From Eledone cirrhosa (taxonomy: Eukaryota), in assembly GCA_964016885.1 (NCBI GenBank), contig OZ024759.1, positions 2,418,001 through 2,482,000 of the forward strand: a DNA stretch of 64,000 nt. The letters are read 5' to 3'. Shown here in pieces: positions 1-64,000 of the stretch (the first letter of the stretch is position 1; every line of letters starts with the position of its first letter). Made by a program: the position numbers and the translations under genes. The notes beneath the pieces are model-generated. The model was not told where the DNA came from and ran no database searches. It worked only from the letters and a program-made list of their open reading frames with translations.

Positions 1-3000
1 ATATTAGTAATATGACACAGTCTATATTAGTAGCATGACAAAGTCTATATTAGTAACATGACAAAGTCTATATTAGTAACATGACACAGTCTATATTAGT
101 AACATGACAAAGTCTATATTAGTAACATGACAAAGTCTATATTAGTAACATGACACAGTCTATATTAGTAACATGACAAAGTCTATATTAGTAACATGAC
201 AAAGTCTATATTAGTAACATGACAGTCTATATTAGTAACATGACACAGTCTATATTAGTAACATGACAAAGTCTATATTAGTAGCATGACACAGTCTATA
301 TTAGTAACATGACACTGTCTATATTGGTAACATGACAAAGTCTATATTAGTAGCATGACACTGTCTATATTAGTAACATGACACAGTCTATATTAGTAAC
401 ATGACACTGTCTATATTAGTAACATGACACAGTCTATATTAGTAACATGACACAGTCTATATTAGTAACATGACAAAGTCTATATTAGTAACATGACAAA
501 GTCTATATTAGTAACATGACAAAGTCTATATTAGTAACATGACAAAGTCAATATTAGTAACATGACAAAGTCTATATTAGTAACATGACAAAGTCTATAT
601 TAGTAACATGACAAAGTCTATATTAGTAACATGGCAAAGTCTATATTAGTAACATGACAAAGTCTATATTAGTAACATGACACAGTCTATATTAGTAGCA
701 TGACACAGTCTATATTAGTAACATGACACAGTCTATATTAGTAGCATGACAAAGTCTATATTAGTAACATGACAAAGTCTATGTTAGTAACATGACACAG
801 TCTATATTAGTAACATGACAAAGTCTATATTAGTAACATGACAAAGTCTATATTAGTAACATGACACAGTCTATATTAGTAACATGACAAAGTCTATATT
901 AGTAACATGACAAAGTCTATATTAGTAACATGACAGTCTATATTAGTAACATGACACAGTCTATATTAGTAACATGACAAAGTCTATATTAGTAGCATGA
1001 CACAGTCTATATTAGTAACATGACACAGTCTATATTAGTAACATGACACAGTCTATATTAGTAACATGGCAAAGTCTATATTAGTAACATGACAAAGTCT
1101 ATATTAGTAACATGACACAGTCTATATTAGTAACATGACACAGTCTATATTAGTAACATGACACAGTCTATATTAGTAACATGACACAGTCTATATTAGT
1201 AACATGACACAGTCTATATTAGTAACATGACACAGTCTATATTAGTAACATGACACAGTCTATATTAGTAACATGACACAGTCTATATTAGTAACATGAC
1301 AAAGTCTATATTAGTAACATGACACAGTCTATATTAGTAACATGACACAGTCTATATTAGTAACATGACACAGTCTATATTAGTAACATGACACAGTCTA
1401 TATTAGTAGCATGACAAAGTCTATATTAGTAACATGACACAGTCTATATTAGTAACATGACAAAGTCTATATTAGTAACATGACACAGTCTATATTAGTA
1501 ACATGACAAAGTCTATATTAGTAGCATGACAAAGTCTATATTAGTAGCATGACAAAGTCTATATTAGTAGCATGACAAAGTCTATATTAGTAACATGACA
1601 AAGTCTATATTAGTAACATGACAACGTCTATATTAGTAACATGACACAGTCTATATTAGTAACATGACACAGTCTATATTAGTAGCATGACAAAGTCTAT
1701 ATTAGTAACATGACACAGTCTATATTAGTAACATGACACAGTCTATATTAGTAACATGACACAGTCTATATTAATAGCATGACAAAGTCTATATTAGTAA
1801 CATGACACAGTCTATATTAGTAACATGACAAAGTCTATATTAGTAACATGACACAGTCTATATTAGTAACATGACAAAGTCTATATTTGTAGCATGACAA
1901 AGTCTATATTAGTAGCATGACAAAGTCTATATTAGTAGCATGACAAAGTCTATATTAGTAACATGACAAAGTCTATATTAGTAACATGACAAAGTCTATA
2001 TTAGTAACATGACACAGTCTATATTAGTAGCATGACACAGTCTATATTAGTAACATGACAAAGTCTATATTAGTAGCATGACAAAGTCTATATTAGTAAC
2101 ATGACACAGTCTATATTAGTAATATGACAAAGTCTATATTAGTAACATGACAAAGTCTATATTAGTAACATGACACAGTCTATATTAGTAACATGACAAT
2201 GTCTATATTAGTAACATGACAAAGTCTATATTAGTAACATGACACAGTCTATATTAGTAACATGACACAGTCTATATTAGTAACATGACACAGTCTATAT
2301 TAGTAACATGACACAGTCTATATTAGTAACATGACACAGTCTATATTTGTAACATGACAAAGTCTATATTAGTAACATGACAAAGTCTATATTAGTAACA
2401 TGACACAGTCTATATTAGTAACATGACACAGTCTATATTAGTAACATGACACAGTCTATATTAGTAACATGACACAGTCTATATTAGTAACATGACAAAG
2501 TCTATATTAGTAGCATGACAAAGTCTATATTAGTAGCATGACAAAGTCTATATTAGTAGCATGACAAAGTCTATATCAGTAACATGACAAAGTCTATATT
2601 AGTAACATGACAAAGTCTATATTAGTAACATGACACAGTCTATATTAGTAGCATGACAAAGTCTATATTAGTAACATGACACAGTCTATATTAGTAGCAT
2701 GACAAAGTCTATATTAGTAACATGACACAGTCTATATTAGTAACATGACACAGTCTATATTAGTAACATGACACAATCTATATTAGTAACATGACAAAGT
2801 CTATATTAGTAACATGACAAAGTCTATATTAGTAACATGACAAAGTCTATATTAGTAACATGACACAGTCTATATTAGTAACATGACACAGTCTATATTA
2901 GTAACATGACAAAGTCTATATTAGTAGCATGACAAAGTCTATATTAGTAACATGACACAGTCTATATTAGTAGCATGACAAAGTCTATATTACTAACATG

Positions 3001-6000
3001 ACTCAGTCTATATTAATAACATGACAAAGTCTATATTAGTAGCATGACAAAGTCTATATTAGTAACATGACACAGTCTATATTAGTAGCATGACAAAGTC
3101 TATATTAGTAACATGACAAAGTCTATATTAGTAACATGACACAGTCTATATTAGTAACATGACAAAGTCTATATTAGTAACATGACAAAGTCTATATTAG
3201 TAACATGACACAGTCTATATAAGTAACATGACAAAGTCTATATTAGTAACATGACAAAGTCTATATTAGTAACATGACAGTCTATATTAGTAACATGACA
3301 CAGTCTATATTAGTAACATGACAAAGTCTATATTAGTAGCATGACACAGTCTATATTAGTAACATGACACAGTCTATATTAGTAACATGACACAGTCTAT
3401 ATTAGTAACATGACACAGTCTATATTAGTAACATGACACTGTCTATATTAGTAACATGACAAAGTCTATATTAGTAGCATGACACAGTCTATATTAGTAA
3501 CATGACACAGTCTATATTAGTAGCATGACAAAGTCTATATTAGTAACATGACACAGTCTATATTAGTAACATGACACAGTCTATATTAGTAACATGACAC
3601 AGTCTATATTAGTAACATGACAAAGTCTATATTAGTAACATGACAAAGTCTATATTAGTAACATGACAAAGTCTATATTAGTAACATGACACAGTCTATA
3701 TTAGTAACATGACACAGTCTATATTAGTAACATGACAAAGTCTATATTAGTAGCATGACAAATTCTATATTAGTAATATGACACAGTCTATATTAGTAGC
3801 ATGACAAAGTCTATATTAGTAACATGACAAAGTCTATATTAGTAACATGACAAAGTCTATATTAGTAACATGACACAGTCTATATTAGTAACATGACACA
3901 GTCTATATTAGTAACATGACAAAGTCTATATTAGTAGCATGACAAATTCTATATTAGTAATATGACACAGTCTATATTAGTAGCATGACAAAGTCTATAT
4001 TAGTAACATGACAAAGTCTATATTAGTAACATGACACAGTCTATATTAGTAACATGACAAAGTCTATATTAGTAACATGACAAAGTCTATATTAGTAACA
4101 TGACAAAGTCTATATTAGTAACATGACAGTCTATATTAGTAACATGACACAGTCTATATTAGTAACATGACAAAGTCTATATTAGTAGCATGACACAGTC
4201 TATATTAGTAACATGACACTGTCTATATTGGTAACATGACAAAGTCTATATTAGTAGCATGACACAGTCTATATTAGTAACATGACACAGTCTATATTAG
4301 TAACATGACACTGTCTATATTAGTAACATGACACAGTCTATATTAGTAACATGACAAAGTCTATATTAGTAACATGACAAAGTCTATATTAGTAACATGA
4401 CAAAGTCTATATTAGTAACATGACAAAGTCTATATTAGTAACATGACAAAGTCTATATTAGTAACATGACAAAGTCTATATTAGTAACATGACAAAGTCT
4501 ATATTAGTAACATGGCAAAGTCTATATTAGTAACATGACAAAGTCTATATTAGTAACATGACACAGTCTATATTAGTAGCATGACACAGTCTATATTAGT
4601 AACATGACACAGTCTATATTAGTAGCATGACAAAGTCTATATTAGTAACATGACAAAGTCTATATTAGTAACATGACACAGTCTATATTAGTAACATGAC
4701 AAAGTCTATATTAGTAACATGACAAAGTCTATATTAGTAACATGACACAGTCTATATTAGTAACATGACAAAGTCTATATTAGTAACATGACAAAGTCTA
4801 TATTAGTAACATGACAGTCTATATTAGTAACATGACACAGTCTATATTAGTAACATGACAAAGTCTATATTAGTAGCATGACACAGTCTATATTAGTAAC
4901 ATGACACAGTCTATATTAGTAACATGACACAGTCTATATTAGTAACATGACACAGTCTATATTAGTAACATGACACTGTCTATATTAGTAACATGACAAA
5001 GTCTATATTAGTAGCATGACACAGTCTATATTAGTAACATGACACAGTCTATATTAGTAGCATGACAAAGTCTATATTAGTAACATGACACAGTCTATAT
5101 TAGTAACATGACACAGTCTATATTAGTAACATGACACAGTCTATATTAGTAACATGACAAAGTCTATATTAGTAACATGACAAAGTCTATATTAGTAACA
5201 TGACAAAGTCTATATTAGTAACATGACACAGTCTATATTAGTAACATGACACAGTCTATATTAGTAACATGACAAAGTCTATATTAGTAGCATGACAAAG
5301 TCTATATTAGTAACATGACACAGTCTATATTAGTAGCATGACAAAGTCTATATTAGTAACATGACAAAGTCTATATTAGTAACATGACACAGTCTATATT
5401 AGTAACATGACAAAGTCTATATTAGTAACATGACAAAGTCTATATTAGTAACATGACACAGTCTATATTAGTAACATGACAAAGTCTATATTAGTAACAT
5501 GACAAAGTCTATATTAGTAACATGACAGTCTATATTAGTAACATGACACAGTCTATATTAGTAACATGACAAAGTCTATATTAGTAGCATGACACAGTCT
5601 ATATTAGTAACATGACACAGTCTATATTAGTAACATGACACAGTCTATATTAGTAACATGACACAGTCTATATTAGTAACATGACACTGTCTATATTGGT
5701 AACATGACAAAGTCTATATTAGTAGCATGACACAGTCTATATTAGTAACATGACACAGTCTATATTAGTAACATGACACTGTCTATATTAGTAACATGAC
5801 ACAGTCTATATTAGTAACATGACACAGTCTATATTAGTAACATGACAAAGTCTATATTAGTAACATGACAAAGTCTATATTAGTAACATGACAAAGTCTA
5901 TATTAGTAACATGACAAAGTCTATATTAGTAACATGACAAAGTCTATATTAGTAACATGACAAAGTCTATATTAGTAACATGACAAAGTCTATATTAGTA

Positions 6001-9000
6001 ACATGGCAAAGTCTATATTAGTAACATGACAAAGTCTATATTAGTAACATGACAAAGTCTATATTAGTAACATGACAAAGTCTATATTAGTAACATGACA
6101 AAGTCTATATTAGTAACATGACAAAGTCTATATTAGTAACATGACAGTCTATATTAGTAACATTACAAAGTCTATATTAGTAGCATGACAAAGTCTATAT
6201 TAGTAACATGACAAAGTCTATATTAGTAACATGACAAAGTCTATATTAGTAACATGACAAAGTCTATATTAGTAACATGACAAAGTCTATATTAGTAACA
6301 TGACAAAGTCTATATTAGTAACATGACACAGTCTATATTAGTAGCATGACAAAGTCTATATTAGTAACATGACACAGTCTATATTAGTAACATGACAAAG
6401 TCTATATTAGTAACATGACACAGTCTATATTAGTAACATGACACAGTCTATATTAGTAACATGACACAGTCTATATTAGTAACATGACACAGTCTATATT
6501 AGTAGCATGACAAAGTCTATATTAGTAACATGACACAGTCTATATTAGTAACATGACAAAGTCTATATTAGTAACATGACACAGTCTATATTAGTAACAT
6601 GACAAAGTCTATATTAGTAGCATGACAAAGTCTATATTAGTAGCATGACAAAGTCTATATTAGTAGCATGACAAAGTCTATATTAGTAACATGACAAAGT
6701 CTATATTAGTAACATGACAACGTCTATATTAGTAACATGACACAGTCTATATTAGTAACATGACACAGTCTATATTAGTAGCATGACAAAGTCTATATTA
6801 GTAACATGACACAGTCTATATTAGTAACATGACACAGTCTATATTAGTAACATGACACAGTCTATATTAATAGTATGGCAAAGTCTATATTAGTAACATG
6901 ACACAGTCTATATTAGTAACATGACAAAGTCTATATTAGTAACATGACACAGTCTATATTAGTAACATGACAAAGTCTATATTTGTAGCATGACAAAGTC
7001 TATATTAGTAGCATGACAAAGTCTATATTAGTAGCATGACAAAGTCTATATTAGTAACATGACAAAGTCTATATTAGTAACATGACAAAGTCTATATTAG
7101 TAACATGACACAGTCTATATTAGTAGCATGACACAGTCTATATTAGTAACATGACAAAGTCTATATTAGTAGCATGACAAAGTCTATATTAGTAACATGA
7201 CACAGTCTATATTAGTAACATGACAAAGTCTATATTAGTAACATGACAAAGTCTATATTAGTAACATGACACAGTCTATATTAGTAACATGACAATGTCT
7301 ATATTAGTAACATGACAAAGTCTATATTAGTAACATGACACAGTCTATATTAGTAACATGACACAGTCTATATTAGTAACATGACACAGTCTATATTAGT
7401 AACATGACACAGTCTATATTAGTAACATGACACAGTCTATATTTGTAACATGACAAAGTCTATATTAGTAACATGACAAAGTCTATATTAGTAACATGAC
7501 AAAGTCTATATTAGTAACATGACACAGTCTATATTAGTAACATGACACAGTCTATATTAGTAACATGACACAGTCTATATTAGTAACATGACACAGTCTA
7601 TATTAATAACATGACAAAGTCTATATTAGTAGCATGACAAAGTCTATATTAGTAGCATGACAAAGTCTATATTAGTAGCATGACAAAGTCTATATTAGTA
7701 ACATGACAAAGTCTATATTAGTAACATGACAAAGTCTATATTAGTAACATGACACAGTCTATATTAGTAGCATGACAAAGTCTATATTAGTAACATGACA
7801 CAGTCTATATTAGTAGCATGACAAAGTCTATATTAGTAACATGACACAGTCTATATTAGTAACATGACACAGTCTATATTAGTAACATGACAAAGTCTAT
7901 ATTAGTAACATGACAAAGTCTATATTAGTAACATGACAGTCTATATTAGTAACATGACACAGTCTATATTAGTAACATGACAAAGTCTATATTAGTAGCA
8001 TGACACAGTCTATATTAGTAACATGACACAGTCTATATTAGTAACATGACACAGTCTATATTAGTAACATGACACAGTCTATATTAGTAACATGACACTG
8101 TCTATATTAGTAACATGACAAAGTCTATATTAGTAGCATGACACAGTCTATATTAGTAACATGACACAGTCTATATTAGTAGCATGACAAAGTCTATATT
8201 AGTAACATGACACAGTCTATATTAGTAACATGACACAGTCTATATTAGTAACATGACACAGTCTATATTAGTAACATGACAAAGTCTATATTAGTAACAT
8301 GACAAAGTCTATATTAGTAACATGACAAAGTCTATATTAGTAACATGACACAGTCTATATTAGTAACATGACACAGTCTATATTAGTAACATGACAAAGT
8401 CTATATTAGTAGCATGACAAAGTCTATATTAGTAACATGACACAGTCTATATTAGTAGCATGACAAAGTCTATATTACTAACATGACACAGTCTATATTA
8501 ATAACATGACAAAGTCTATATTAGTAGCATGACAAAGTCTATATTAGTAACATGACACAGTCTATATTAGTAGCATGACAAAGTCTATATTAGTAACATG
8601 ACAAAGTCTATATTAGTAACATGACACAGTCTATATTAGTAACATGACAAAGTCTATATTAGTAACATGACAAAGTCTATATTAATAACATGACACAGTC
8701 TATATTAGTAACATGACAAAGTCTATATTAGTAACATGACAAAGTCTATATTAGTAACATGACAGTCTATATTAGTAACATGACACAGTCTATATTAGTA
8801 ACATGACAACGTCTATATTAGTAGCATGACACAGTCTATATTAGTAACATGACACAGTCTATATTAGTAACATGACACAGTCTATATTAGTAACATGACA
8901 CAGTCTATATTAGTAACATGACACTGTCTATATTAGTAACATGACAAAGTCTATATTAGTAGCATGACACAGTCTATATTAGTAACATGACACAGTCTAT

Positions 9001-9950
9001 ATTAGTAACATGACACTGTCTATATTAGTAACATGACACAGTCTATATTAGTAACATGACAAAGTCTATATTAGTAACATGACAAAGTCTATATTAGTAA
9101 CATGACAAAGTCTATATTAGTAACATGACAAAGTCTATATTAGTAGCATGACAAAGTCTATATTAGTAACATGACAAAGTCTATATTAGTAACATGACAA
9201 AGTCTATATTAGTAACATGACAAAGTCTATATTAGTAACATGACAATGTCTATATTAGTAACATGACAAAGTCTATATTAGTAACATGACAAAGTCTATA
9301 TTAGTAACATGACAAAGTCTATATTAGTAACATGACAAAGTCTATATTAGTAACATGACAAAGTCTATATTAGTAACATGACAAAGTCTATATTAGTAAC
9401 ATGATACAGTCTATATTAGTAACATGACACAGTCTATATTAGTAACATGATACAGTCTATATTAGTAACATGACACAGTCTATATTAGTAACATGACAGT
9501 CTATATTAGTAACATGACACAGTCTATATTAGTAACATGGCACTGTCTATATTAGTAGCATGACACAGTCTATATTAGTAACATGACAAAGTCTATATTA
9601 GTAACATGACACAGTCTATATTAGTAACATGACAAAGTCTATATTAGTAGCATGACACAGTCTATATTAGTAACATGACAAAGTCTATATTAGTAGCATG
9701 ACACAGTCTATATTAGTAACATGACAAAGTCTATATTAGTAACATGACACAGTCTATATTAGTAACATGACAAAGTCTATATTAGTAACATGACAAAGTC
9801 TATATTAGTAACATGACAAAGTCTATATTAGTAACATGACACAGTCTATATTAGTAACATGACAAAGTCTATATTAGTATCATGGCAAGATCTATATTTT
9901 TAGCATAACAAAGTCGGTATTAGTAACATGAGAAAGTCTATACTAGTAGG
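1..9950. repeat. 23-bp satellite array, consensus GTCTATATTAGTA(A/G)CATGACA(A/C)A, ~430 copies, truncated by window start, intronic
   Basis: GTCTA recurs at 20, 43, etc. (period 23); occasional 21-bp deletion monomers; last units (9880-9950) are degenerate. Confidence 0.98.
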
Positions 9951-12718
9951 ATGCGTGACAGACGGGATGTGCAGTGGTACGCGCAAAAGTGAAACTAATC
10001 ACTAAACGTAAAATCCGGTCTCCTGGTGTTGCCCTGCCCAAAAGATTGAATGCTGCTCGTCTTAGGGATAAAAATGTGAAGAGGGCATTGAAAGAAGAGA
10101 TGCAGGTTGCAGATCTCGGTGAGGATTGGCCGACCCTTAAAAAGTCGATTTATGATGTAGGCAGGCGTGTTCTGGGATTGGTGCAGGAAAACATCAAGAC
10201 TGGTTTAACGAGAATGATGAACATATAGAAGACTTGTTGGCTGAGAAGAGGCGTGCTCTGTCACGCTACTTGACGGCAAAACCACAGGAGAAGAATATGT
10301 TGCATGAGGAACTCAAGGATGTAAAATCACGTGTTAGGCGAAGTCATCCTCAGATGAAGGATCAGTGGTGGAGTGAAAAGGCTGATGAGATACAAACTGC
10401 ATCAGATTCCAATAACACAAAGCTGTTGTACAGTCTCTTGCGTGAAGTTTATGGACCGTCTTCTTCTCTGGTGACACCGCTTCGCACCAAGGATGGCAAA
10501 GAACTTCTTCGTGACTCACAAGGAATGCTATGAAGCTGGCGAGAGCACTTTCATGAGCTTTTGAATCAGCCGTCTGTCGTCAATGAAGATTTCCTCAACC
10601 TCATTCCAGAAAGTCCTGTGAAAGTAGCTCTCGCAGAACCTCCGACGCTTGTGGAGGTTGCAATGGCTATCTCAAAGCTGAACAGTGGAAGGTCTCCAGG
10701 TATGGATGGCATACATGCAGAGCTCCTACAATATGATGGTGAGAGACTTCTGCAACATCTTCACTCTTTGTTTGGCAGGATATGGGCTAATGAATCCGTA
10801 CTTGAGGACTGGAGAGATGCAGTAATGGTGGTCTTGTACAAGGGAAAGGGTAACAGGAATGATTGTGGGAACTACAGAGGTATATCATTGCTTTCTGCCG
10901 TAGGGAAAGTTTTTTGTAGGGTGATGCTGGACCATCTGCTGACATACATTGCAGATTATATTCTTCCTGAAAGTCAATCTGGTTTTCGTGCTGGACGCGG
11001 CACTACTGATATGATCTTTGCAGCTAGACAGCTCCAGGAGAAGTGCATGGAACAAGGCTTGGATCTGTATCAGGTTTTTGTCGATCTGACAAAAGCTTTC
11101 GATACTGTTAACAGCAATGCATTATGGAAGGTTCTCCAGAAACTTGGTTGCCCTGATAAGTTCCTTGCTTTAGTTAGGTCTTTCCATGATGACATGAAGG
11201 CTTGGGTTAATGTCGGAGGTAACATGTCGGAGCCTATCTCAGTAAAAAAATGGAGTGAAACAGGGGGATATTCCAGCACCGACTCTGTTTGCCATGTAAT
11301 TTGCAATGGTTTTCTGCATTGCATTCAGGAATTGCGAGCATGGTGTTTACATCCGATATCGAACCTCAGGCAGCATATTTAACATCAGGCGCTTTGCTGC
11401 AAAAACAAAAGTATTTACATCAATCATAAGAGACCTCTTGTATGCAGATGATTGCGCACACAGAGAGTGATATGCAGCACATTTTGAATACATTTTCTGA
11501 TGCTTGCACTGTCGTCATGTACCAACCTGCCTCTGGTAAGCAGTACACTGAACCAAACATCTATGTGTATGGTAAACGACTTGGAGTGGTTGATCAGTTT
11601 GTCTACCTGGGAAGCACTGTTGATCGATACAGCAACCTTGATAATGAAATCCTACTCAGGATTAGGAAAGCAAGTGATGCTTTCAGAAAGCTAGAAAGGC
11701 GACTCTTGGGTCGGTGAGACATATGCAAGAAGACAAAGGTAAAGGTGTACAAGGCATGTGTGCTCTCTTCTCTTCTTTATGCCTGCGAGAACTGGGTCAC
11801 ATATCGACACCACCTTAAGCAATTGGAGCGTTTCCATCAGATGTGTCTCAGACGTTCCATGGCATTCACTGGAGGGACCACATCAGTGATGTCGAGATTT
11901 TGGAAAGCTCTATGTGTGACAGTATAGCAGCTCTTGTGCTTAAGCAAAGACTCCGTTGGAGTGGTCACCTTGCCAGGATGAAGAATTCTAGAATACCAAA
12001 ACAACTCTTTTATGGAGAGTTAGTTAAAGAAAAACGACCTCCACATAAACCAAAAAAGAGGTGTAAGGATTCCTTGAAAGCCTCTTTGAAAGACGCTAAC
12101 ATTTCTGCTGATACATGGAAAAATATTGCTGCTGATCGTAATAAATGGAGAAAGACTGTATATGAGGGGAAAGTTACTTTTGAGGCATCTTAATTCGCAT
12201 ACGAGAAAGTAAAGCGGGATGTGAGGAAAGGCATTGCTTTTGCATTTCCAGACGGCGAAGGTCCTCCTATGGCGCCGACATGCAGCGTCTGTGCGAGACT
12301 CTGCCTAAGTAAAGCTGGACTCAAAAGTCATCTTAAAGTGAGACCAGTGGTTGACTACCAGGCTGCTGTTGGAGATGCTACTCATCATGCTTGCCAAGCT
12401 TGTGGTAGAGAATGTAAATCAGCAGGAGGGCTCAAACGACATGCAAAAGTACATGAACTCCAACCGCAGCTGGCTATTCCCAGTGAATGTTTTGGTTGCC
12501 GACTCTGTGCAAGACATTTTAGATCATTGGCTGGGCTAAAAAGCCACATTCGATTGCAGCGCTGTTAATTGCTATCGTGTGTGCGTGTGTATATATATAT
12601 GTATATTATTATTGTTGTTGTCGTTATCATTGTTGTTATTATTATTATTATTGTTATTATTATGGGTTTTTTGTTTCTCATGGAATGGCCATACTCGATA
12701 ACGAGGGGGGCAGCCATC

Positions 12719-12720: not shown

Positions 12721-12806
<86 letters not shown>

Positions 12807-12884: not shown

Positions 12885-13022
12885 GTTGCTGCACTACAGA
12901 AAAATATACCACCTCCCCGTGACTACCAACCTCCTCCTACACATGATGGACTGAACCAAGATTTAGCCAACCATCTGTCAAATGTCCTTCAGAGACTTAT
13001 ATTGGATGATAGTTGTCTTGAG
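12885..13022 (+). CDS. SPAG17: SPAG17/PF6-like internal exon A ([46 protein letters not shown]), phase 0/0
   Basis: ttattag acceptor, GAG|gtgagt donor, 138 nt open; resembles recalled vertebrate SPAG17 VVATEEDLVPP..DGLDHRIAAH segment. Confidence 0.85.
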
Positions 13023-13278: not shown

Positions 13279-13349
13279 TTAATATGAGGTGTCTTCCCTT
13301 ATTTTTGACAGAAGTGGTCTTGAGGTGAGTTGTCTTCCCTTGTGATAAC

Positions 13350-14146: not shown

Positions 14147-14411
14147 GTGCTTAATAATAAACAGGAAGAGGAAGTTGTTGAGATAGAAACCCCTCTGAAG
14201 TTGATCAACTACCACGACAAAAGTGGTCGACGCTATCATCATTTGAAACCACTCCATGATTTTATACCACAAGCCGAGGATGAGAATATGTTGAACACGT
14301 TTTCTTGCTTCAAAGTTGAGAATTTCCCAATCACGACGACCAGGACTCATGTTGATGCTGAGGCTCAGTCATTTCTCCATTACTGCCTGAAGAGCCGTCT
14401 CCCACAAAGCG
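14147..14411 (+). CDS. SPAG17: SPAG17-like exon B (VLNNKQEEE..PLKLINYHDK..SFLHYCLKSRLPQS), phase 0/1
   Basis: ttttag acceptor, G|gtcagt donor, 265 nt open; PLKLINYHD matches recalled SPAG17 PLLLNYHD and LHYC matches MHFC. Confidence 0.85.
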
Positions 14412-16139: not shown

Positions 16140-16319
16140 TGGTGAATTTTGCATTAAACCAGAACGTGTTTGAGACATTGACCCTGTTGAAGGTGGATGA
16201 CGAAGGCATAATTGAACCCCATCAACCTCGTCACACTAATCCATGGGATCACCCATTATTTGTGTTGGAACAACGTGTCTACCCAGAGTTTGATGGAACC
16301 AAGATCAACCATCCAATAA
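16140..16319 (+). CDS. SPAG17: SPAG17-like exon C (VVNFALNQNVFETLTLLKVDDEGII..NPWDHP..), phase 1/1
   Basis: aaccag acceptor, A|gtatgt donor, 180 nt; matches recalled FTFESLKLSEVDEKG..IPWDNP. Confidence 0.87.
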
Positions 16320-16545: not shown

Positions 16546-16840
16546 ATCCATTCAACCAACCATCCATCCATTCATTCATCCATCCATCCAACCATCCAAC
16601 AACCCTCCACCCACCATCCAACCAACCACCACCCACAACCCACCATCCAACCACCCACCACCCACCAGCCAACCAACCACCACCCACAACCCACCATCCA
16701 ACCACCCATCACCCACCATCCAACCACCTACCATCCACCAGCCACCCACCAGCCAACCAACCACCACCCAACCACCCACCATCCAACCCATCACCCACCA
16801 CCAACCAGCACCCGCCACCCACCACCCACCACCACCCATC
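16546..16840. repeat. C/A-rich low-complexity repeat (CCAT/CCAA/CCAC)n
   Basis: Direct inspection; ends ~25 nt before the exon D acceptor. Confidence 0.92.
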
Positions 16841-16864
16841 TATATGTCTGCTGTTTCCCCCCAG

Positions 16865-16975
16865 CTGAGAAGAAGTTCAGTAATGCTGGTTCCTGCTTCT
16901 CCGCTGACTCTACGTTAAGTGCCACCAAAGAACCCATTGTGAAAAGAAGCTCTTCACGCAGACGTATCTCAACAG
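16865..16975 (+). CDS. SPAG17: SPAG17-like exon D (TEKKFSNAGSCFSADSTLSATKEPIVKRSSSRRRIST), phase 1/1, poorly conserved linker
   Basis: tttccccccag acceptor, AG|gtaggt donor, 111 nt open, phase-compatible with both neighbours; no recognisable homology. Confidence 0.65.
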
Positions 16976-17039
16976 GTAGGTTCACTTCCTATCTACTTAC
17001 TCCTCATCAGGTAGGCCACACCCACCCATTGGTCCATCT

Positions 17040-17720: not shown

Positions 17721-17756
17721 ATGTCTATATATAATGTTTTACTGTGCTACCTTCAG

Positions 17757-17917
17757 ATGAGAAACAGGCAGTGTCAGAGGGCGTCACTACCAACTGTAAA
17801 GGAATAGAGATAGAACAGAAATGTGAAGAGTTAATTACAAAACTTGCTGATTGCAGGTACAGTTGTTTGAAGAACTGGAATTGCATAGAACACCTGACAA
17901 AGAAAGATTTTCAGCAG
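17757..17917 (+). CDS. SPAG17: SPAG17-like exon E (DEKQAVSEG..RYSCLKNWNCIEHLTKKDFQQ), phase 1/0
   Basis: cttcag acceptor, CAG|gtaaaa donor, 161 nt; matches recalled RSLMDWSFTEHFKPKVLLQ. Confidence 0.83.
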
Positions 17918-17941
17918 GTAAAAAACACTTTGTTGATGGCT

Positions 17942-21108: not shown

Positions 21109-21126
21109 TGTATGTTTTCCTTTCAG

Positions 21127-46100: not shown

Positions 46101-49100
46101 GTTCTGTTTCACCCATGTTTCTACCTCCTCACTATTGAGGTAACAAAGAGGTTAGAGTTCTGTTTCACGCATGTTTCTCCCTCCTCAGTAGTTGAGGTAA
46201 CAAAGAGGTTAAAGTTCTGTTTCACCCATGTTTCTCCCACCTCACTATTGAGGTAACAAAGAGGTTAGAGTTCTGTTTCACCCATGTTTCTCCCTCCTCA
46301 CTATTGAGGTAACAAAGAGGTTTAAGTTCTGTTTCACCCATGTTTCTCCCTCCTCACTATTGAGGTAACAAAGAGGTTTAAGTTCTGTTTCACCCATGTT
46401 TCTCCCACCTCACTATTGAGGTAACAAAGAGGTTTAAGTTCTGTTTCACCCATGTTTCTCCCACCTCACTATTGAGGTAACAAAGAGGTTAGAGTTCTGT
46501 TTCACCCATGTTTCTCCCTCCTCACTATTGAGGTAACAAAGAGGTTTAAGTTCTGTTTCACCCATGTTTCTCCCTCCTCACTATTGAGGTAACAAAGAGG
46601 TTTAAGTTCTGTTTCACCCATGTTTCTCCCACCTCACTATTGAGGTAACAAAGAGGTTAGAGTTCTGTTTCACGCATGTTTCTCCCTCCTCAGTAGATGA
46701 GGTAACAAAGAGGTTAAAGTTCTGTTTCCCCGATGTTTCTACCTCCTCACTAATTGAGGTAATAAAAGAGGTTAAAGTTCTGTTTCCCCCATGTTTCTAC
46801 CTCCTCACTTGTTGAGGTAAAAAAGAGGTTAAAGTTCTGTTTCACCCATGTTTCTACCTCCTCATATTTGAGGTAACAAAGAGGTTAAAGTTCTGTTTCA
46901 CCCATGTTTCTACCGCCTCACTAGTTGAGGTAACAAAGAGGTTAGAGTTCTGTTTCCCCCATGTTTCTACCTCCTCACTATTTGAGGTAACAAAGAGGTT
47001 AAAGTTCTGTTTCACCCATGTTTCTCCCTCCTCATTAGTGAGGTAACAAAGAGGTTAAAATTCTGTTTCACCCATGTTTCTACCTCCTCAGTTATGAGGT
47101 AACAAAGAGGTTAAAATTCTGTTTCACCCATGTTTCTACCTCCTCACTAATTGAGGCAGCAAAGAGGTTAAAGTTCTGTTTCACCCATGTTTCTCCCCCC
47201 TTACTAGCTGAGGTAACAAAGAGGTTAAAGTTCTGTTTCACCCATGTTTCTCCCCCCTTACTAGTTGAGGTAACAAAGAAGTTAAAGTACTGTTTCACCC
47301 AAGTTTCTCCCTCCTTACTAGTTGAGGTAACAAAGAGGTTAAAATTCTGTTTCACCCATGTTTATCCCTCCTTACTAGTTGAGGTAACAAAGAGGTTTAA
47401 GTTCTGTTTCACCCATGTTTCTACCTCCTCACAATTTGAGGTAACAAAGAGGTTAAAGTACTGTTTCACCCATGTTTCTCCCTCCTTACTAGTTGAGGTA
47501 ACAAAGAGGTTAAAATTCTGTTTCACCCATGTTTCTACCTCCTCACTATTTGAGGTAACAAAGAGGTTAAAGTTCTGTTTCACCCATCTTTCTACTTTCT
47601 CAATATTTGAGGTTAGAAAGAGGTTAAAGTTCTGTTTCACCCATGTTTCTACCTCCTGACAACTGAGGCAACAAAGAGGTTAAAGTTCTGTTTCACCCAT
47701 GTTTCTACCTCCTCATAGGTTGAGGTAACAAAGAGGTTAAAGTTCTGTTTCCCTCATGTTTCTACCTCCTCACTATTTGAGGTAACGAAGAGCTTAAAGT
47801 TCTGTTTCACCCATGTTTTTCCCTCCTCACTAGTTGAGGTAACAAAGAGGTTAAAGTTCTGTTTCACCCATGTTTCTCCCTCCTTACTAGTTGAGGTAAC
47901 AAAGAGGTGAAAGTTCTGTTTCACCCATGTTTCTACCTCCTCACTAGTTGAGGTAACAAAGAGGTTAAAGTTCTGTTTCACCCATGTTTCTCCCTCCTCA
48001 CTAGTTGAGGTAACAAAGAGGTTAAAGTTCTGTTTCACCCATGTTTCTACCTCCTCACAGGTTGAGGTAACAAAGAGGTTAAAGTTCTGTTTCCCCCATG
48101 TTTCTACCTCCTCACTATTTGAGGTAACAAATAGGTTAAAGTTCTGTTTCCCCCATGTTTCTCCCTCCTCACTAGTTGAGGTAACAAAGAGGTTAAAGTT
48201 CTGTTTCACCCATGTTTCTCTCTCCTCACTATTTGAGGTAACAAAGAGGTTAAAGTTCTGTTTCACCCATGTTTCTCCCTCCTCACTATTAGAGGTAACA
48301 AAGAGGTTAAAATTCTGTGTCACCCATGTTTCTACCTCCTCACTAGTTGAGGTAACAAAGAGGTTAAAGTTCTGTTTCCCCCATGTTTCTACCTCCTCAC
48401 TAGTTGAGGTAACAAAGAGGTTAAAGTTCTGTTTCACCCATGTTTCTCCATCCTCACTAGTTGAGGTAACAAAGAGGTTAAAGTTCTATTTCACCCATGT
48501 TTCTCCTTCCTTACTATTTGAGGTAACAAAGAGGTTAAAGTTCTGTTTCACCCATGTTTCTCCCCCCTCACTAGTTGAGGTAACAAAAAGGTTAAAGTTC
48601 TGTTTCACCCATTTTACTACCTCCTCACTAGTTGAGGTAACAAAGAGGTTAGAGTTCTGTTTCACCCATGTTTCTACCTCCTCATAAGTTGAGGTAACAA
48701 AGAGGTTAAAGTTCTGTTTCCCCCATGTTTCTCCCTCCTCACTAGTTGAGGTAACAAAGAGGTTAAAGTTCTGTTTCACCCATGTTTCTCCCTCCATACT
48801 AGTTGAGGTAACAGAGAGGTTAAAGTTCTGTTTCACCCATGTTTCTCCCTCCTCACTATTTGAGGTAACAAAGAGGTTAAAGTTCTGTTTCACCCATGTT
48901 TCTCCCTCCTCAGTAGTTGAGGTAACAAAGAGGTTAAAGTTCTGTCTCACCCATGTTTCTCCCTCCTCACTAGTTGATGTAACAAAGAGGTTAAAGTTCT
49001 GTTTCACCCATGTTTCTACCTCCTCACTAGTTGAGGTAACAAGGAGGTTAAAATTCTGTTTCACCCATGTTTCTCCCTCCTCACTATTGAGGTAACAAAG

Positions 49101-52100
49101 AGGTTAGTGTTCTGTTTCACCCATGTTTCTACCTCCTCACTATTTGAGGTAACAAAGAGGTTAAAGTTCTGTTTCACCCATGTTTCTCCCTCCTCACTAG
49201 TTGAGGTAACAAAGAGGTTAAAGTTCAGTTTCACACATGTTTCTCCCTCCTCAGTAGTTGAGGTAACAAAGACGTTAAAGTTCTGTTTCACTCATGTTTC
49301 TCCCCCCTCACTATTGAGGTAACAAAGACGTTAAAGTTCTGTTTCACTCATGTTTCTCCCCCCTCACTAGTTGAGGTAACAAAGAGGTTAAAGTTCTGTT
49401 TCACCCATGTTTCTCACTCCTCACTAGTTGAGGTAACAAAGACGTTAAAGTTCTGTTTCACTCATGTTTCTCCCCCCTCACTATTGAGGTAACAAAGAGG
49501 TTAAAGTTCTGTTTCACACATGTTTCTCCCTCCTTACTAGTTGAGGTAACAATGAGGTTAAAGTTCTGTTTCACCCATGTTTCTACCCCTTACTAGTTGA
49601 GGTAACAAAGAGGTTAAAGTTCTGTTTCACCCATGTTTCTACCTCCTCACTAGTTGAGGTAACAAAGAGGTTAAAGTTCTGTTTCCCCCATGTTTCTCCC
49701 TCCTCATTATTTGAGGTAACAAATAGGTTAAAGTTCTGTTTCACCCATGTTTCTCCCCCCTAACTAGTTGAGGTAACAAAGAGGTTAAAGTTCTGTTTCA
49801 CCCATGTTTCTAAATCTCCTCACTAGTTGAGGTAACAAAGAGGTTTAAGTTCTGTTTCACCCATGTTTCTCCCTCCTCACTAGTTGAGGTAACAAAGAGG
49901 TTAAAGTTCTGTTTCACACATGTTTCTCCCTCCTCACTAGTTGAGGTAACAAAGAGGTTGAAGTTGTGTTTCACCCATGTTTCTACCTTCCTCACTATTT
50001 GAGGTAACAAAGAGGTTAAAGTTCTTTTTCACCCATGTTTCTCTCTCGTCACTAGTTGAGGTAACAAAGAGGTTAGAGTTCTGTTTCACCCATGTTGCTA
50101 CCTCCTCATTATTTGAGGTAACAAAAAGGTTAAAGTTCTGTTTCACCCATGTTTCTCTCTCCTCACTATTTGAGGTAACAAAGAGGTTAAAGTTCTGTTT
50201 CACCCATGTTTCTCCCTCCTCACTATTAGAGGTAACAAAGAGGTTAAAATTCTGTTTCACCCATGTTTCTACCTCCTCACTAGTTGAGGTAACAAAGAGG
50301 TTAAAGTTCTGTTTCCCCCATGTTTCTACCTCCTCACTAGTTGAGGTAACAAAGAGGTTAAAGTTCTGTTTCACCCATGTTTCTCCATCCTCACTAGTTG
50401 AGGTAACAAAGAGGTTAAAGTTCTATTTCACCCATGTTTCTCCTTCCTTACTATTTGAGGTAACAAAGAGGTTAAAGTTCTGTTTCACCCATGTTTCTCC
50501 CTCCTCACTATTTGAGGTAACAAAGAGGTTAAAGTTCTGTTTCACCCATGTTTCTCCCTCCTCAGTAGTTGAGGTAACAAAGAGGTTAAAGTTCTGTCTC
50601 ACCCATGTTTCTCCCTCCTCACTAGTTGATGTAACAAAGAGGTTAAAGTTCTGTTTCACCCATGTTTCTACCTCCTCACTAGTTGAGGTAACAAGGAGGT
50701 TAAAATTCTGTTTCACCCATGTTTCTCCCTCCTCACTATTGAGGTAACAAAGAGGTTAGTGTTCTGTTTCACCCATGTTTCTACCTCCTCACTATTTGAG
50801 GTAACAAAGAGGTTAAAGTTCTGTTTCACCCATGTTTCTCCCTCCTCACTAGTTGAGGTAACAAAGAGGTTAAAGTTCAGTTTCACACATGTTTCTCCCT
50901 CCTCAGTAGTTGAGGTAACAAAGACGTTAAAGTTCTGTTTCACTCATGTTTCTCCCCCCTCACTATTGAGGTAACAAAGACGTTAAAGTTCTGTTTCACT
51001 CATGTTTCTCCCCCCTCACTAGTTGAGGTAACAAAGAGGTTAAAGTTCTGTTTCACCCATGTTTCTCACTCCTCACTAGTTGAGGTAACAAAGACGTTAA
51101 AGTTCTGTTTCACTCATGTTTCTCCCCCCTCACTATTGAGGTAACAAAGAGGTTAAAGTTCTGTTTCACACATGTTTCTCCCTCCTTACTAGTTGAGGTA
51201 ACAATGAGGTTAAAGTTCTGTTTCACCCATGTTTCTACCCCTTACTAGTTGAGGTAACAAAGAGGTTAAAGTTCTGTTTCACCCATGTTTCTACCTCCTC
51301 ACTAGTTGAGGTAACAAAGAGGTTAAAGTTCTGTTTCCCCCATGTTTCTCCCTCCTCATTATTTGAGGTAACAAATAGGTTAAAGTTCTGTTTCACCCAT
51401 GTTTCTCCCCCCTAACTAGTTGAGGTAACAAAGAGGTTAAAGTTCTGTTTCACCCATGTTTCTAAATCTCCTCACTAGTTGAGGTAACAAAGAGGTTTAA
51501 GTTCTGTTTCACCCATGTTTCTCCCTCCTCACTAGTTGAGGTAACAAAGAGGTTAAAGTTCTGTTTCACACATGTTTCTCCCTCCTCACTAGTTGAGGTA
51601 ACAAAGAGGTTGAAGTTGTGTTTCACCCATGTTTCTACCTTCCTCACTATTTGAGGTAACAAAGAGGTTAAAGTTCTTTTTCACCCATGTTTCTCCCTCC
51701 TCACTAGTTGAGGTAACAAAGAGGTTAAAGTTCTGTTTCACCCATGTTTCTCCCTCGTCACTAGTTGAGGTAACAAAGAGGTTAGAGTTCTGTTTCACCC
51801 ATGTTGCTACCTCCTCACTATTTGAGGTAACAAAAAGGTTAAAGTTCTGTTTCACCCATGTTTCTCTCTCCTCACTATTTGAGGTAACAAAGAGGTTAAA
51901 GTTCTGTTTCACCCATGTTTCTCCCTCCTCACTATTAGAGGTAACAAAGAGGTTAAAATTCTGTTTCACCCATGTTTCTACCTCCTCACTAGTTGAGGTA
52001 ACAAAGAGGTTAAAGTTCTGTTTCCCCCATGTTTCTACCTCCTCACTAGTTGAGGTAACAAAGAGGTTAAAGTTCTGTTTCACCCATGTTTCTCCATCCT

Positions 52101-58100: not shown

Positions 58101-61100
58101 TCGGTTTCACACATGTTTCTCCCTCCTTACTAGTTGAGGTAACAATGAGGTTAAAGTTCTGTTTCACCCATGTTTCTCCCCCCTCACTAGTTTAGGTAAC
58201 AAAGAGGTTAAAGTTCTGTTTCACCCATGTTTCTCCCTCCTCACTAGTTGAGGTAACAAAGAGGTTGAAGTTCTCTTTCACCCATGTTTCTACCTTCCTC
58301 ACTATTTGAGGTAACAAAGAGGTTAAAGTTCTGTTTCACCCATGTTTCTACCTCCTCACTAGTTGAGGTAACAAAGAGGTTAAAGTTATATTTCACCCAT
58401 GTATCTCCCTCCTCACTAGGTGAGGTAACCAATGGATTAAAGTTCTGTTTCACCAATGTTCCCCCTTTTAACTAGTTGAGGTAACAAAGAGGTTAAAGTT
58501 CTGTTTCACCCATGTTTCTCCCCCCTCACTAGTTGAGGTAACAAAGAGGTTAAATTTCTGTTTCACCCATGTTTCTACCTCCTCACTAGTTGAGGTAACA
58601 AAGAGGTTAAAGTTCTGTTTCACCCACGTTTCTCCCTCCTCATTAGTTGAGGTAACAAAGAGGTTGAAGTTCTGTTTCACACATGTTTCTCCCTCCTCAC
58701 TAGTTGAGGTAACAAAGAGGTTAAAGTTCTGTTTCACACATGTTTCTCCCTCTTACTAGTTGAGGTAACAATGAGGTTAAAGCTCTGTTTCACCCAGGTT
58801 TCTCCCTCCTCACTAGTTGAGGTAACAAAGAGGTTAAAGTTTGGTTTCACCCATGTTTCTACCTCCTCACTAGTTGAGGTAACAAAGAGGTTAAAGTTCT
58901 GTTTCCCCCATGTTTCTCCCTCCTCATTAGTTGAGGTAACAAAGACGTTAAAGTTCTGTTTCACACATGTTTCTCCCTCCTTACTAGTTGAGGTAACAAT
59001 GAGGTTAAAGTTCTGTTTCACCCATGTTTCTACCCCTTACTAGTTGAGGTAACAAAGAGGTTAAAGTTCTGTTTCACCCATGTTTCTACCTCCTCACTAG
59101 TTGAGGTAACAAAGAGGTTAAAGTTCTGTTTCCCCCATGTTTCTACCCCTTACTAGTTGAGGTAACAAAGAGGTTAAAGTTCTGTTTCACCCATGTTTCT
59201 ACCTCCTCAGTAGTTGAGGTAACAAAGAGGTTAAAGTTCTGTTTCACCCATGTTTCTCCCTCCTCACTAGTTGAGGTAACAAAGAGGTTAAAGTTCTGTT
59301 TCACCCATGTTTCTCCCTCCTCACTAGTTGAGGTAACAAAGAGGTTAAAGTTCTGTTTCACCCATGTTTCTCCCTCCTCACTAGTTGAGGTAACAAAGAG
59401 GTCAAAGTTCTGTTTCACCCATGTTTCTCCTTCCTTACCATTTGAGGTAACAAAGAGGTTAAAGTTCTGTTTCACCCATGTTCTCCCTCCTCACTAGTTG
59501 AGGTAACAAAGAGGTTAGAGTTCTGTTTCACCCATGTTACTACCTCCTCACTATTTGAGGTAACGAAAAGGTTAAAGTTCTGTTTCACCCATGTTTCTCT
59601 CTCCTCACTATTTGAGGTAACAAAGAGGTTAAAGTTCGGTTTCACCCATGTTTTCCCTCCTCACTATTAGAGGTAACAAAGAGGTTAAAGTTCTGTTTCA
59701 CCCATGTTTCTACCTCCTCACTAGTTGAGGTAACAAAGAGGTTAAAGTTCTGTTTCACCCATGTTTCTACCTCCTCACTAGTTGAGGTAACACAGAGGTT
59801 AAAGTTCTGTTTCACCCATGTTTCTCCCTCCTCATTAGTTGAGGTAACAAAGAGGTTAAAGTTCTGTTTCACCCATGTTTCTCCCTCCTCATTAGTTGAG
59901 GTAACAAAGACGTTAAAGTTCTGTTTCACACATGTTTCTCCCTCCTTACTAGTTGAGGTAACAATGAGGTTAAAGTTCTGTTTCACCCATGTTTCTACCC
60001 CTCACTAGTTGAGGTAACAAAGAGGTTAAAGTTCTGTTTCCCCCATGTTTCTCCCTCCTCACTATTTGAGGTAACAAATAGGTTAAAGTTCTGTTTCAGC
60101 CATGTTTCTCCCCCCTCACTAGTTTAGGTAACAAAGAGGTTAAAGTTCTGTTTCACCCATATTTCTCCCTCCTCACTAGTTGAGGTAACAAAGAGGTTGA
60201 AGTTCTGTTTCACCCATGTTTCTACCTTCCTCACTATTTGAGGTAACAAAGAGGTTAAAGTTCTGTTTCACCCATGTTTCTACCTCCTCAGTAGTTGAGG
60301 TAACAAAGAGGTTAAAGTTCTGTTTCACCCATGTTTCTCCCTACTCACTAGTTGAGGTAACAAAAAGGTTAAAGTTCTGTTTCACCCATGTTTCTCCCTC
60401 CTCACTAGTTGAGGTAACAAAGAGGTTAAAGTTCTGTTTCACCCATGTTTCTCCCTCCTCACTAGTTGAGGTAACAAAGAGGTCAAAGTTCTGTTTCACC
60501 CATGTTTCTCCTTCCTTACCATTTGAGGTAACAAAGAGGTTAAAGTTCTGTTGCACCCATGTTCTCCCTCCTCACTAGTTGAGGTAACAAAGAGGTTAGA
60601 GTTCTGTTTCACCCATGTTGCTACCTCCTCACTATTTGAGGTAACGAAAAGGTTAATGTTCTGTTTCACCCATGTTTCTCTCTCCTCACTATTTGAGGTA
60701 ACAAAGAGGTTAAAGTTCTGTTTCAGCCATGTTTCTCCCCCCTCACTAGTTTAGGTAACAAAGAGGTTAAAGTTCTGTTTCACCCATGTTTCTCCCTCCT
60801 CAGTAGTTGAGGTAACAAAGAGGTTAAAGTTCTGTTTCACACATGTTTCTCCCTCCTTACTAGTTGAGGTAACAATGAGGTTAAAGTTCTGTTTCACCCA
60901 TGTTTCTACCCCTTACTAATGAGGTAACAAAGAGCTTAAAGTTCTGTTTCACCCATGTTTCTACCTCCTCACTAGTTGAAGTAACAAAGAGGTTAAAGTT
61001 CTGTTTACCCCATGTTTCTACCTCCTCACTATTTGATGTAACAAATAGGTTAAAGTTCTGTTTCCCCCATGTTTCTGCCTCCGCACTATTTGAGGTAACA

Positions 61101-64000
61101 AATAGGTTAGAGTTCTGTTTCACCCATGTTTCTCCCCCCTCACTAGTTGAGGTAACAAAGAGGTTAAAGTTCTGTTTCACCCATGTTTCTACCTCCTCAC
61201 TAGTTGAGGTAACAAAGAGGTTAAAGTTCTGTTTCACCCATGTTTCTCCCTCCTCATTAGTTGAGGTAACAAAGAGGTTAAAGTTCTGTTTCACACATGT
61301 TCTCCCTCCTTACTAGTTGAGGTAAAAATGAGGTTAAAGTTCTGTTTCACCCATGTTTCTACCCCTTACTAGTTGATGTAACAAAGAGGTTAAAGTTCTG
61401 TTTCACCCATGTTTCTACCTCCTCACTAGTTGAGGTAACAAAGAGGTTAAAGTTCTGTTTCCCCCATGTTTCTCCCTCCTCACTATTTGAGGTAACAAAT
61501 AGGTTAAACTTCTGTTTCAGCCATGTTTCTCCCCCCTCACTAGTTTGGGTAACAAAGAGGTTAAAGTTCTGTTTCACCCATGTTTCTCCCTCCTCACTAG
61601 TTGAGGTAACAAAGAGGTTGAAGTTCTGTTTCACCCATGTTCTACCTCCTCACTAGTTGAGGTAACAAAGAGGTTAAAGTTCGGTTTCACCCATGTTTCT
61701 ACCTCCTCACTAGTTGAGGTAACAAAGAGGTTAAAGTTCTGTTTCACCCATGTTTCTCCCTCCTCATTAGTTGAGGTAACAAAGACGTTAAAGTTCTGTT
61801 TCACACATGTTTCTCCCTCCTTACTAGTTGAGGTAACAATGAGGTTAAAGTTCTGTTTCACCCATGTTTCTACCCCTTACTAGATGAGGTAACAAAGAGG
61901 TTAAAGTTCTGTTTCACCCATGTTTCTACCTCCTCACTAGTTGAGGTAACAAAGAGGTTAAAGTTCTGTTTCCCCCATGTTTCTACCCCTTACTAGTTGA
62001 GGTAACAAAGAGGTTAAAGTTCTGTTTCACCCATGTTTCTACCTCCTCACTAGTGAGGTAACAAAGAGGTTAAAGTTCTGTTTCCCCCATGTTTCTCCCT
62101 CCTCACTATTTGAGGTAACAAATAGGTTAAAGTTCTGTTTCAGCCATGTTTCTCCCCCCTCACTAGTTTAGGTAACAAAGAGGTTAACGTTCTGTTTCAC
62201 CCATATTTCTCCCTCCTCACTAGTTGAGGTAACAAAGAGGTTGAAGTTCTGTTTCACCCATGTTTCTACCTTCCTCACTATTTGAGGTAACAAAGAGGTT
62301 AAAGTTCTGTTTCACCCATGTTTCTACCTCCTCAGTAGTTGAGGTAACAAAGAGGTTAAAGTTCTGTTTCACCCATGTTTCTCCCTCCTCACTAGTTGAG
62401 GTAACAAAGAGGTTAAAGTTCTGTTTCACCCATGTTTCTCCCTCCTCACTAGTTGAGGTAACAAAGAGATTAGAGTTCTGTTTCACCCATGTTGCTACCT
62501 CCTCACTATTTGAGGTAACGAAAAGGTTAAAGTTCTGTTTCACCCATGTTTCTCTCTCCTCACTATTTGAGGTAACAAAGAGGTTAAAGTTCTGTTTCAG
62601 CCATGTTTCTCCCCCCTCACTAGTTTAGGTAACAAAGAGGTTAAAGTTCTGTTTCACCCATGTTTCTCCCTCCTCACTAGTTGAGGTAACAAAGAGGTTA
62701 AAGTTCTGTTTCACACATGTTTCTCCCTCCTTACTAGTTGAGGAAACAATGAGGTTAAAGTTCTGTTTCACCCATGTTCCTACCCCTTACTAATGAGGTA
62801 ACAAAGAGCTTAAAGTTCTGTTTCACCCATGTTTCTACCTCCTCACTAGTTGAGGTAACAAAGAGGTTAAAGTTCTGTTTACCCCATGTTTCTCCCTCCT
62901 CACTATTTGATGTAACAAATAGGTTAAAGTTCTATTTCCCCCATGTTTCTGCCTCCTCACTATTTGAGGTAACAAATAGGTTAGAGTTCTGTTTCACCCA
63001 TGTTTCTCCCCCCTCACTAGTTGAGGTAACAAAGAGGTTAAAGTTCTGTTTCACCCATGTTTCTACCTCCTCACTAGTTGAGGTAACAAAGAGGTTAAAG
63101 TTCTGTTTCACCCATGTTTCTCCCTCCTCATTAGTTGAGGTAACAAAGAGGTTAAAGTTCTGTTTCACACATGTTCTCCCTCCTTACTAGTTGAGGTAAA
63201 AATGAGGTTAAAGTTCTGTTTCACCCATGTTTCTACCCCTTACTAGTTGATGTAACAAATAGGTTAAAGTTCTGTTTCAGCCATGTTTCTCCCCCCTCAC
63301 TAGTTTGGGTAACAAAGAGGTTAAAGTTCTGTTTCAACCATGTTTCTCCCTCCTCACTAGTTGAGGTAACAAAGAGGTTGAAGTTCTGTTTCACCCATGT
63401 TCTACCTCCTCACTAGTTGAGGTAACAAAGAGGTTAAAGTTCTGTTTCATTCATGTTTCTCCCTCCTCACTATTGAGGTAACAAAGAGGTTAAAGTTCTG
63501 TTTCACACATGTTCTCCCTCCTTACTAGTTGAGGTAAAAATGAGGTTAAAGTTCTGTTTCACCCATGTTTCTACCCCTTACTAGTTGATGTAACAAAGAG
63601 GTTAAAGTTCTGTTTCACCCATGTTTCTACCTCCTTACTAGTTGAGGTAACAAAGAGGTTAAAGTTCTGTTTCCCCCATGTTTCTCCCTCCTCACTATTT
63701 GAGGTAACAAATAGGTTAAATTTCTGTTTCAGCCATGTTTCTCCCCCCTCACTAGTTTAGGTAACAAAGAGGTTAAAGTTCTGTTTCACCCATGTTTCTC
63801 CCTCCTCACTAGTTGAGGTAACAAAGAGGTTGAAGTTCTGTTTCACCCATGTTTCTACCTTCCTCACTATTTGAGGTAACAAAGAGGTTAAAGTTCTGTT
63901 TCACCCATGTTTCTACCTCCTCAGTAGTTGAGGTAACAAAGAGGTTAAAGTTCTGTTTCACCCATGTTTCTCCCTCCTCACTAGTTGAGGTAACAAAGAG
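22119..64000. repeat. 57-bp satellite array, consensus ACTAGTTGAGGTAACAAAGAGGTTAAAGTTCTGTTTCACCCATGTTTCT(A/C)CCTCCTC, >730 copies, single orientation, runs off window end
   Basis: 19-aa period in ORF track; 56/58-bp indel variants; no interrupting unique sequence seen over ~42 kb. Confidence 0.98.

Follow-up and report, generated by a model that had tools for sequence, protein, structure and literature searches.

We examined a window of 64,000 nucleotides from Eledone cirrhosa (NCBI GenBank assembly GCA_964016885.1, contig OZ024759.1, positions 2,418,001 to 2,482,000 of the forward strand) in which seven exons assigned to a SPAG17 gene lie between two large tandem arrays with units of 23 and 57 bp. 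SPAG17 is a protein of the C1a projection of the central pair and not a dynein (PMC7999657). The exons fall between positions 12885 and 21964, and are as follows:

12885-13022, + strand: SPAG17 exon a, 138 nt; 33 of 46 residues identical to Octopus vulgaris SPAG17
14147-14411, + strand: SPAG17 exon b, 265 nt; 38 of 88 residues identical; tblastn E 3e-19 from 14147
16140-16319, + strand: SPAG17 exon c, 180 nt; 29 of 60 residues identical; tblastn E 8e-15
16865-16975, + strand: SPAG17 exon d, 111 nt; frame kept, strong acceptor and donor; 9 of 35 residues identical in the alignment
17757-17917, + strand: SPAG17 exon e, 161 nt; 18 of 52 residues identical; tblastn E 1.4e-4
21127-21281, + strand: SPAG17 exon f, 155 nt; matches residues 810-847 of mouse SPAG17 (PDB 9ijj), E 8.5e-6
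21759-21964, + strand: SPAG17 exon g, 206 nt; tblastn with residues 747-814 of the O. sinensis model P0028, E 1e-17

When joined, the seven exons sum exactly to 1,216 nt and give 405 codons without a stop, which confirms the intact, phase-compatible coding sequence of 1216 nt claimed in the initial annotation of this DNA. GT..AG boundaries are present in all six inner introns, which range from 477 to 3,209 bp in length. At the local base composition the probability of 405 codons without a stop is ~2e-12, a figure based on exon edges that were set by eye; six of the seven exons were also recovered by tblastn with O. vulgaris SPAG17. The remaining one, exon d, has no tblastn match of its own and is the least certain of the set, being based on frame and splice sites. 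An alternative acceptor at 14165 is possible for exon b and would shorten it to 247 nt. Exon a opens at an acceptor and has no start codon, with 415 residues preceding the matching point in O. vulgaris SPAG17, and exon g terminates at a GTAAGT donor and has no stop codon. For exon f, the top match among 26 in a representative protein library was O. vulgaris SPAG17 (67%, E 5e-17). In the PDB, exons b, c and g returned no SPAG17 match, and Pfam assigned none of the seven exons to a family. Searches restricted by protein length did not recover the annotated SPAG17 of Eledone cirrhosa itself or a transcript-derived piece of it: exon b against proteins of 145-2,000 aa gave nine candidates of which none scored, residues 416-815 of O. 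vulgaris SPAG17 against proteins of 1,093-3,481 aa gave three matches among 5,301 candidates with none from Eledone cirrhosa, and the corresponding O. bimaculoides region against proteins of up to 1,104 aa scored with none of 8,000. We also observed that positions 13312-13324 and the bases that follow are a near copy of the 3' end and donor of exon a, with an acceptor-like site ahead of it; this copy is a possible 13-nt pseudo-exon whose use would shift the frame.

The spliced frame is colinear with residues 416 to ~815 of O. vulgaris SPAG17 (190 of 388 identical), and the encoded protein is 50-51% identical to the three Octopus SPAG17 proteins used for comparison (O. vulgaris CAI9738926.1, O. 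sinensis XP_036368107.1 and O. bimaculoides XP_014768400.1; the mouse sequence was the chain in PDB 9ijj). A nine-row tree, which contains no squid or cuttlefish sequence and in which long branches meeting at the root were flagged, places the window protein as sister to the three Octopus proteins with support of 100/100, on a terminal branch of 0.53 as compared with ~0.50 on the Octopus side. Interspersed repeats in the introns, putatively of an octopus type, would speak for an octopod origin over a squid one. By their similarity the seven exons are assigned to the middle fifth of a cephalopod SPAG17, and the earlier SPAG17-like call is borne out by the mouse and Octopus matches, the colinear exons and the tree grouping. 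Set against the full-length central-apparatus protein SPAG17/PF6 (~2,000 residues), the colinear likeness extends over 405 residues of the middle part, or about one fifth, while the C-terminal PF14874 domain of SPAG17 homologues falls outside the window. The part of SPAG17 encoded here has no apparent sign of decay, because the frame is open over 405 codons and the branch length is like that of the Octopus side; the frame is thus intact, as the initial annotation held, with neither a stop nor a frameshift and with a branch that is not longer. The gene is likely to be whole and working. In mouse, SPAG17 is required for spermatogenesis and for respiratory motile cilia, and it also affects primary cilia (PMC7999657).

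Most of the DNA on either side of the exons is tandem repeat, with ~81% of the window made up of the two large arrays:

1-9948, no strand assigned: 433 copies of a 23-bp unit in tandem, running off the left window edge; 95% matches in Tandem Repeats Finder (TRF); likely upstream intron
9960-12570 (edges approximate), + strand: decayed long interspersed nuclear element (LINE); RVT_1 E 7.7e-15 on 10534-11379
22121-64000, no strand assigned: 57-bp tandem array, ~736 copies (TRF 22166-64000), with a degenerate start near 22121; likely downstream intron

We conclude that both flanks are probably introns. Specifically, if the gene is whole then they must be, because exon a begins at an acceptor, exon g ends at a donor, and residues of the Octopus SPAG17 proteins lack a counterpart in the window on both sides (415 upstream and ~1,170-1,200 downstream). 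On the same condition the flanking introns would measure at least 12,884 bp upstream and at least 42,036 bp downstream, sizes that are lower bounds since both flanks end at a window edge. The sizes of >12.8 kb and >42 kb given for these introns in the initial annotation hold for the visible flanks, whose probable status as introns is deduced from the exon ends rather than from a flanking exon in the window. Its description of them as mostly pure satellite fits the downstream flank, of which 99.6% is the 57-bp array, and does not fit the upstream flank, which is 77% 23-bp array and 20% decayed LINE. A tblastn search of the remaining Octopus SPAG17 residues across the window gave no significant match, which rules out exons hidden inside the arrays. 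The single low-repeat patch within the 57-bp array, at 58399-58488, is a diverged monomer.

The 23-bp array has a mean divergence of 3.2% from its majority unit, and all six of its frames close within 28 codons. It is directly adjoined by the LINE, an element with broken open reading frames whose reverse transcriptase has stops and frameshifts and which carries a C2H2 zinc-finger tail (zf-C2H2_4, E 3.3e-8 on 12194-12565). The 57-bp array begins 157 nt past the last donor, runs off the right window edge and has a mean divergence of 3.8% from its majority unit. It contains exact duplicated blocks of 6,395, 2,541, 1,690 and 1,229 bp, the largest being a tandem duplicate at 37131-49887 with an offset of 6,362. 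These blocks could be the result of very recent unequal exchange or amplification, or of duplication in the assembly; when the four largest exact duplicates are removed, ~30 kb of 57-bp array is still left. The two arrays are unrelated to one another and have no regular higher-order period.

The inner introns are the most informative as to mechanism. Tandem repeats occupy 3,735 of their 7,864 nt (47%), with shares of 12%, 10%, 54%, 86%, 77% and 0% in introns 1 to 6, respectively, so that three of the six are more than half tandem repeat. The inner arrays and an associated ribosomal RNA (rRNA) fragment are as follows:

16546-16838, no strand assigned: CCAA/CCAC-rich micro/minisatellite, 54% of intron 3
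17030-17697, no strand assigned: 22-bp minisatellite, ~31 copies, 86% of intron 4
18000-20170, no strand assigned: 48-bp minisatellite, ~46 copies (TRF), with a unit that matches ~48 nt of 28S rRNA
20124-20640 (right edge approximate), + strand: decayed 28S rRNA fragment in intron 5, Rfam RF02543
20814-21108, no strand assigned: 15-bp minisatellite, ~20 copies, ending 19 nt ahead of exon f

A blastn comparison among six array units gave no match of one to another. RF02543 is recognized on 20124-20416 with 79 bits (E 1.6e-17) and with 103.5 bits in a wider search, and the last 48-bp units align to its consensus at ~1502-1548 and continue directly into the non-repeated rRNA fragment. The 48-bp array was therefore born in place from an inserted 28S rRNA sequence, part of which became its unit, and the locus shows a satellite caught at its birth. 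By eye the fragment also resembles the Rfam consensus at an upstream end near 17943, where an Rfam search of 17920-18110 found no match. The newly formed Y satellites of Drosophila (5.5-26 kb; PMC8794474) are a close parallel in that they too are homogeneous, span several to tens of kb and have a unit taken from flanking sequence; the difference is that one unit here derives from a 28S rRNA fragment and sits inside an intron of a protein-coding gene. Open frames are present in the 48-bp and 57-bp arrays because these unit lengths are divisible by three, and they break at indels.

Taken together, we consider it rather probable that the gene is whole with its other exons lying beyond the arrays, and that the arrays arose in place and expanded within introns irrespective of any role of SPAG17 in sperm. 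Under this explanation short local duplications would arise often in introns of the Eledone cirrhosa genome; most of the resulting arrays would stay at tens of copies, as in the inner introns, and a few would run away to hundreds. Runaway growth would proceed by unequal exchange or slippage and leave exact duplicated blocks of 1-6 kb, selection would purge only those changes that damage exons or splice sites, the polymerase would read through the arrays, and the spliceosome would pair the true sites by exon definition. That local repeat birth is frequent is indicated because three of six inner introns of ordinary size are mostly tandem repeat, each with a unit of its own, and because the 48-bp array comes from 28S sequence. 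This account is also congruent with what is described of other molluscs. For example, simple repeats make up 14.7% of the genome of O. minor, where introns are enlarged to a mean of 5.4 kb (PMC6279123), and oyster satellites are dispersed genome-wide as short arrays (PMC8268682). Sepia has 5.83% simple repeats and almost no SINEs (short interspersed nuclear elements; PMC13218726). The likeness to the dispersed arrays of molluscs is in the many unrelated arrays outside classical heterochromatin and in the repeat-rich, enlarged introns of octopus (PMC8268682, PMC6279123). The oyster arrays differ in being rather short and for the most part linked to Helitrons (PMC8268682), whereas the 57-bp array of the window measures at least 42 kb.

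Several points weigh against this explanation. Neither a flanking exon nor a spliced transcript was seen. The large arrays (at least 10 and 42 kb) are also 5-20 times as long as the longest inner one, the inner arrays being 0.1-2.2 kb, so that something may let these two grow further, be it their position or an expression confined to slow-dividing cells. Finally, summed contig depth is ~3,700-42,000 on the first 57-bp units as compared with 2-10 on exons; this depth is not a copy number, and it hints that copies of the 57-bp family are more numerous than those in the window, be it in a much longer array or at other sites. If growth in place is nonetheless what happened, as we think most likely, then the locus adds a case to those known of tandem arrays that grow in introns of a repeat-rich genome, and is of modest importance. 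Arrays of this kind break gene models. A possible instance is O. sinensis SPAG17, which is annotated as two models on one chromosome (P0028 and P0032) that in O. vulgaris numbering cover residues 1-1250 and 1704-1976; the break in the annotation coincides with neither array-bearing intron of the window. Cephalopod satellites seem to be little described, and a literature search with few subscription journals in its scope found no description of satellite-filled cephalopod introns and no kl-like case outside of flies.

An alternative that we judge unlikely is a position effect. Here the gene would be located within or next to a satellite domain near a centromere (pericentromeric) or a telomere (subtelomeric), and regional heterochromatin, instead of general repeat birth or gene class, would let arrays grow. 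The share of the window taken by two large arrays that both continue past its edges is what such a domain would give, and the summed contig depth, which is very high for the 57-bp unit, points weakly in the same direction. A vertebrate precedent is found in the dot chromosomes of chicken, where pericentromeric heterochromatin expands together with satellite and testis-expressed genes (PMC9974502); this is the nearer vertebrate parallel for a positional cause, but it involves amplicons and not introns. Against a regional effect, the 23-bp and 57-bp arrays share neither sequence nor a regular higher-order period, the inner introns are of ordinary length, and a scan of the window with four telomere-type motifs gave no match.

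We regard as improbable a second alternative, that these are orphan exons and the arrays lie outside the introns of any working gene, whether through partial duplication, recent breakage of the gene by the arrays or an assembly mis-join. It would account for the lack of flanking exons within the window, the exact 6,395-bp tandem duplicate could be a product of assembly, and exon duplicates commonly occur around the Y genes of Drosophila (PMC8794474). Against it, the 405 codons have neither stop nor frameshift and the branch is not lengthened, and ~30 kb of array persists after the four largest exact duplicates are dropped. Furthermore, contigs from three runs of one sample, possibly the sample behind the assembly itself, cover exons f and g and the start of the downstream array. 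Those covering exon f (three of three runs) and exon g (two of three runs) have no differences from the window and no variant letters listed, and a 631-bp contig joins exon g to the start of the 57-bp array in two of the three runs; run X3 has no cover of exon g and is uninformative on this point. At these two exons the contigs gave no sign of a further, near-identical copy (90-99% identity), although contigs do not prove absence. A mis-join at the edge between exon g and the array, or a diverged recent duplicate, is less likely because the contigs match exons f and g exactly and bridge to the array.

A further point in favor of orphan exons is that splicing could be disturbed by motifs in the 57-bp unit, which on the sense strand carries a pyrimidine tract with an AG followed after five bases by a donor-like GT similar to the donor of exon e. 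The strict form of this acceptor and donor pattern occurs in 408 units, the AG five bases ahead of a GT is kept in 480 of 703, and both motifs occur together in 0.09% of shuffled units; these motifs were picked after viewing the sequence, in an inspection that took in several arrays on both strands. The frame past the first such site is open for 131 codons. A reading of the 57-bp array as a chain of micro-exons with 52-nt introns was rejected since the acceptor is not conserved. Specifically, the acceptor G is 77% conserved and is the second most variable of the 57 columns (308 full-length monomers of 546 parsed), and the splice dinucleotides are not more conserved than the rest of the unit, as they would be in a tandem micro-exon array. 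Given how poorly the acceptor G is conserved relative to most other columns, we read these motifs as decoys and not as micro-exons. If SPAG17 is expressed, its splicing must bypass hundreds of them.

Also improbable, in our view, is the proposal of the initial annotation that this is convergent intron gigantism like that of Drosophila kl-3 and kl-5. Spelled out, this model would have spermatocyte-expressed axonemal genes specifically tolerate or use giant satellite introns that are transcribed as loops with dedicated RNA-binding proteins. The likeness to kl-3, kl-5 and ORY (PMC6508621, PMC11207136, PMC8794474) is that of an axonemal gene whose long introns are here likely filled by tandem repeats, with repeats that differ from intron to intron. 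SPAG17, as a C1a protein, is itself axonemal, though not a dynein, and is needed for mouse spermatogenesis (PMC7999657). The two flanking arrays are cut by the window edges and may be longer, and intron size but not sequence is conserved both in Drosophila genes with gigantic introns and in dystrophin (PMC11207136). The differences are considerable. The Drosophila introns are of megabase size, consist of simple satellites with 5-bp units, lie on a heterochromatic male-limited Y and are transcribed as loops that need Blanks and Heph; here the units are 23 and 57 bp long, the arrays measure at least 10 and 42 kb, the gene encodes a central-pair protein and no Y is known. Octopus males are ZZ. 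No male-limited non-recombining chromosome is known in octopus, and a study on the cephalopod Z reports that no W or Y was found (PMC10925132). SPAG17 is not named in the text or supplement of that study, whose gene list holds only 19 conserved Z genes.

The visible lengths also fall well short of gigantism. Gigantic introns are described as >1,000 times the typical length, reaching hundreds of kb to Mb (PMC11207136). In O. vulgaris the median intron measures 2,467 bp (PMC10700109), and the visible upstream and downstream flanks amount to 5 and 17 times this length, respectively, multiples that are lower bounds only. In addition, the known loop system tracks the chromosome more than the gene class, because in D. 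pseudoobscura the autosomal homologues of kl-3 and kl-5 are thought not to form loops while Y-linked genes do (PMC6508621), and because loop genes and their repeats turn over within ~2 My in Drosophila (PMC8794474). The role of SPAG17 in somatic cilia (PMC7999657) and the occurrence of arrays in short inner introns weigh against the claim as well, and a single gene cannot reveal a trend of a gene class. The claimed convergence with Y-loop genes is thus unsupported, if still conceivable, and ordinary local repeat growth is what the evidence favors. We would give only a slim chance to the stronger form, in which SPAG17 and perhaps other axonemal genes have satellite introns of hundreds of kb with loop-like transcription in spermatocytes in the absence of a Y and with the decoys skipped. 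If true, gene class and not Y linkage would be what intron gigantism goes with, and an enrichment of such introns in axonemal or testis genes would bear on whether gigantic introns reflect function or gene location.

Two minor observations concern the places where repeats begin and end. Five of seven arrays checked in 16546-22121 start or stop 19-157 nt from an exon edge; the introns are short and chance is possible. Short high-copy interspersed repeats are present at 21327-21668, 20757-20813 and 22068-22124, where they appear as depth spikes with loose ends, and the last of these lies right where the 57-bp array starts, which it might have seeded.

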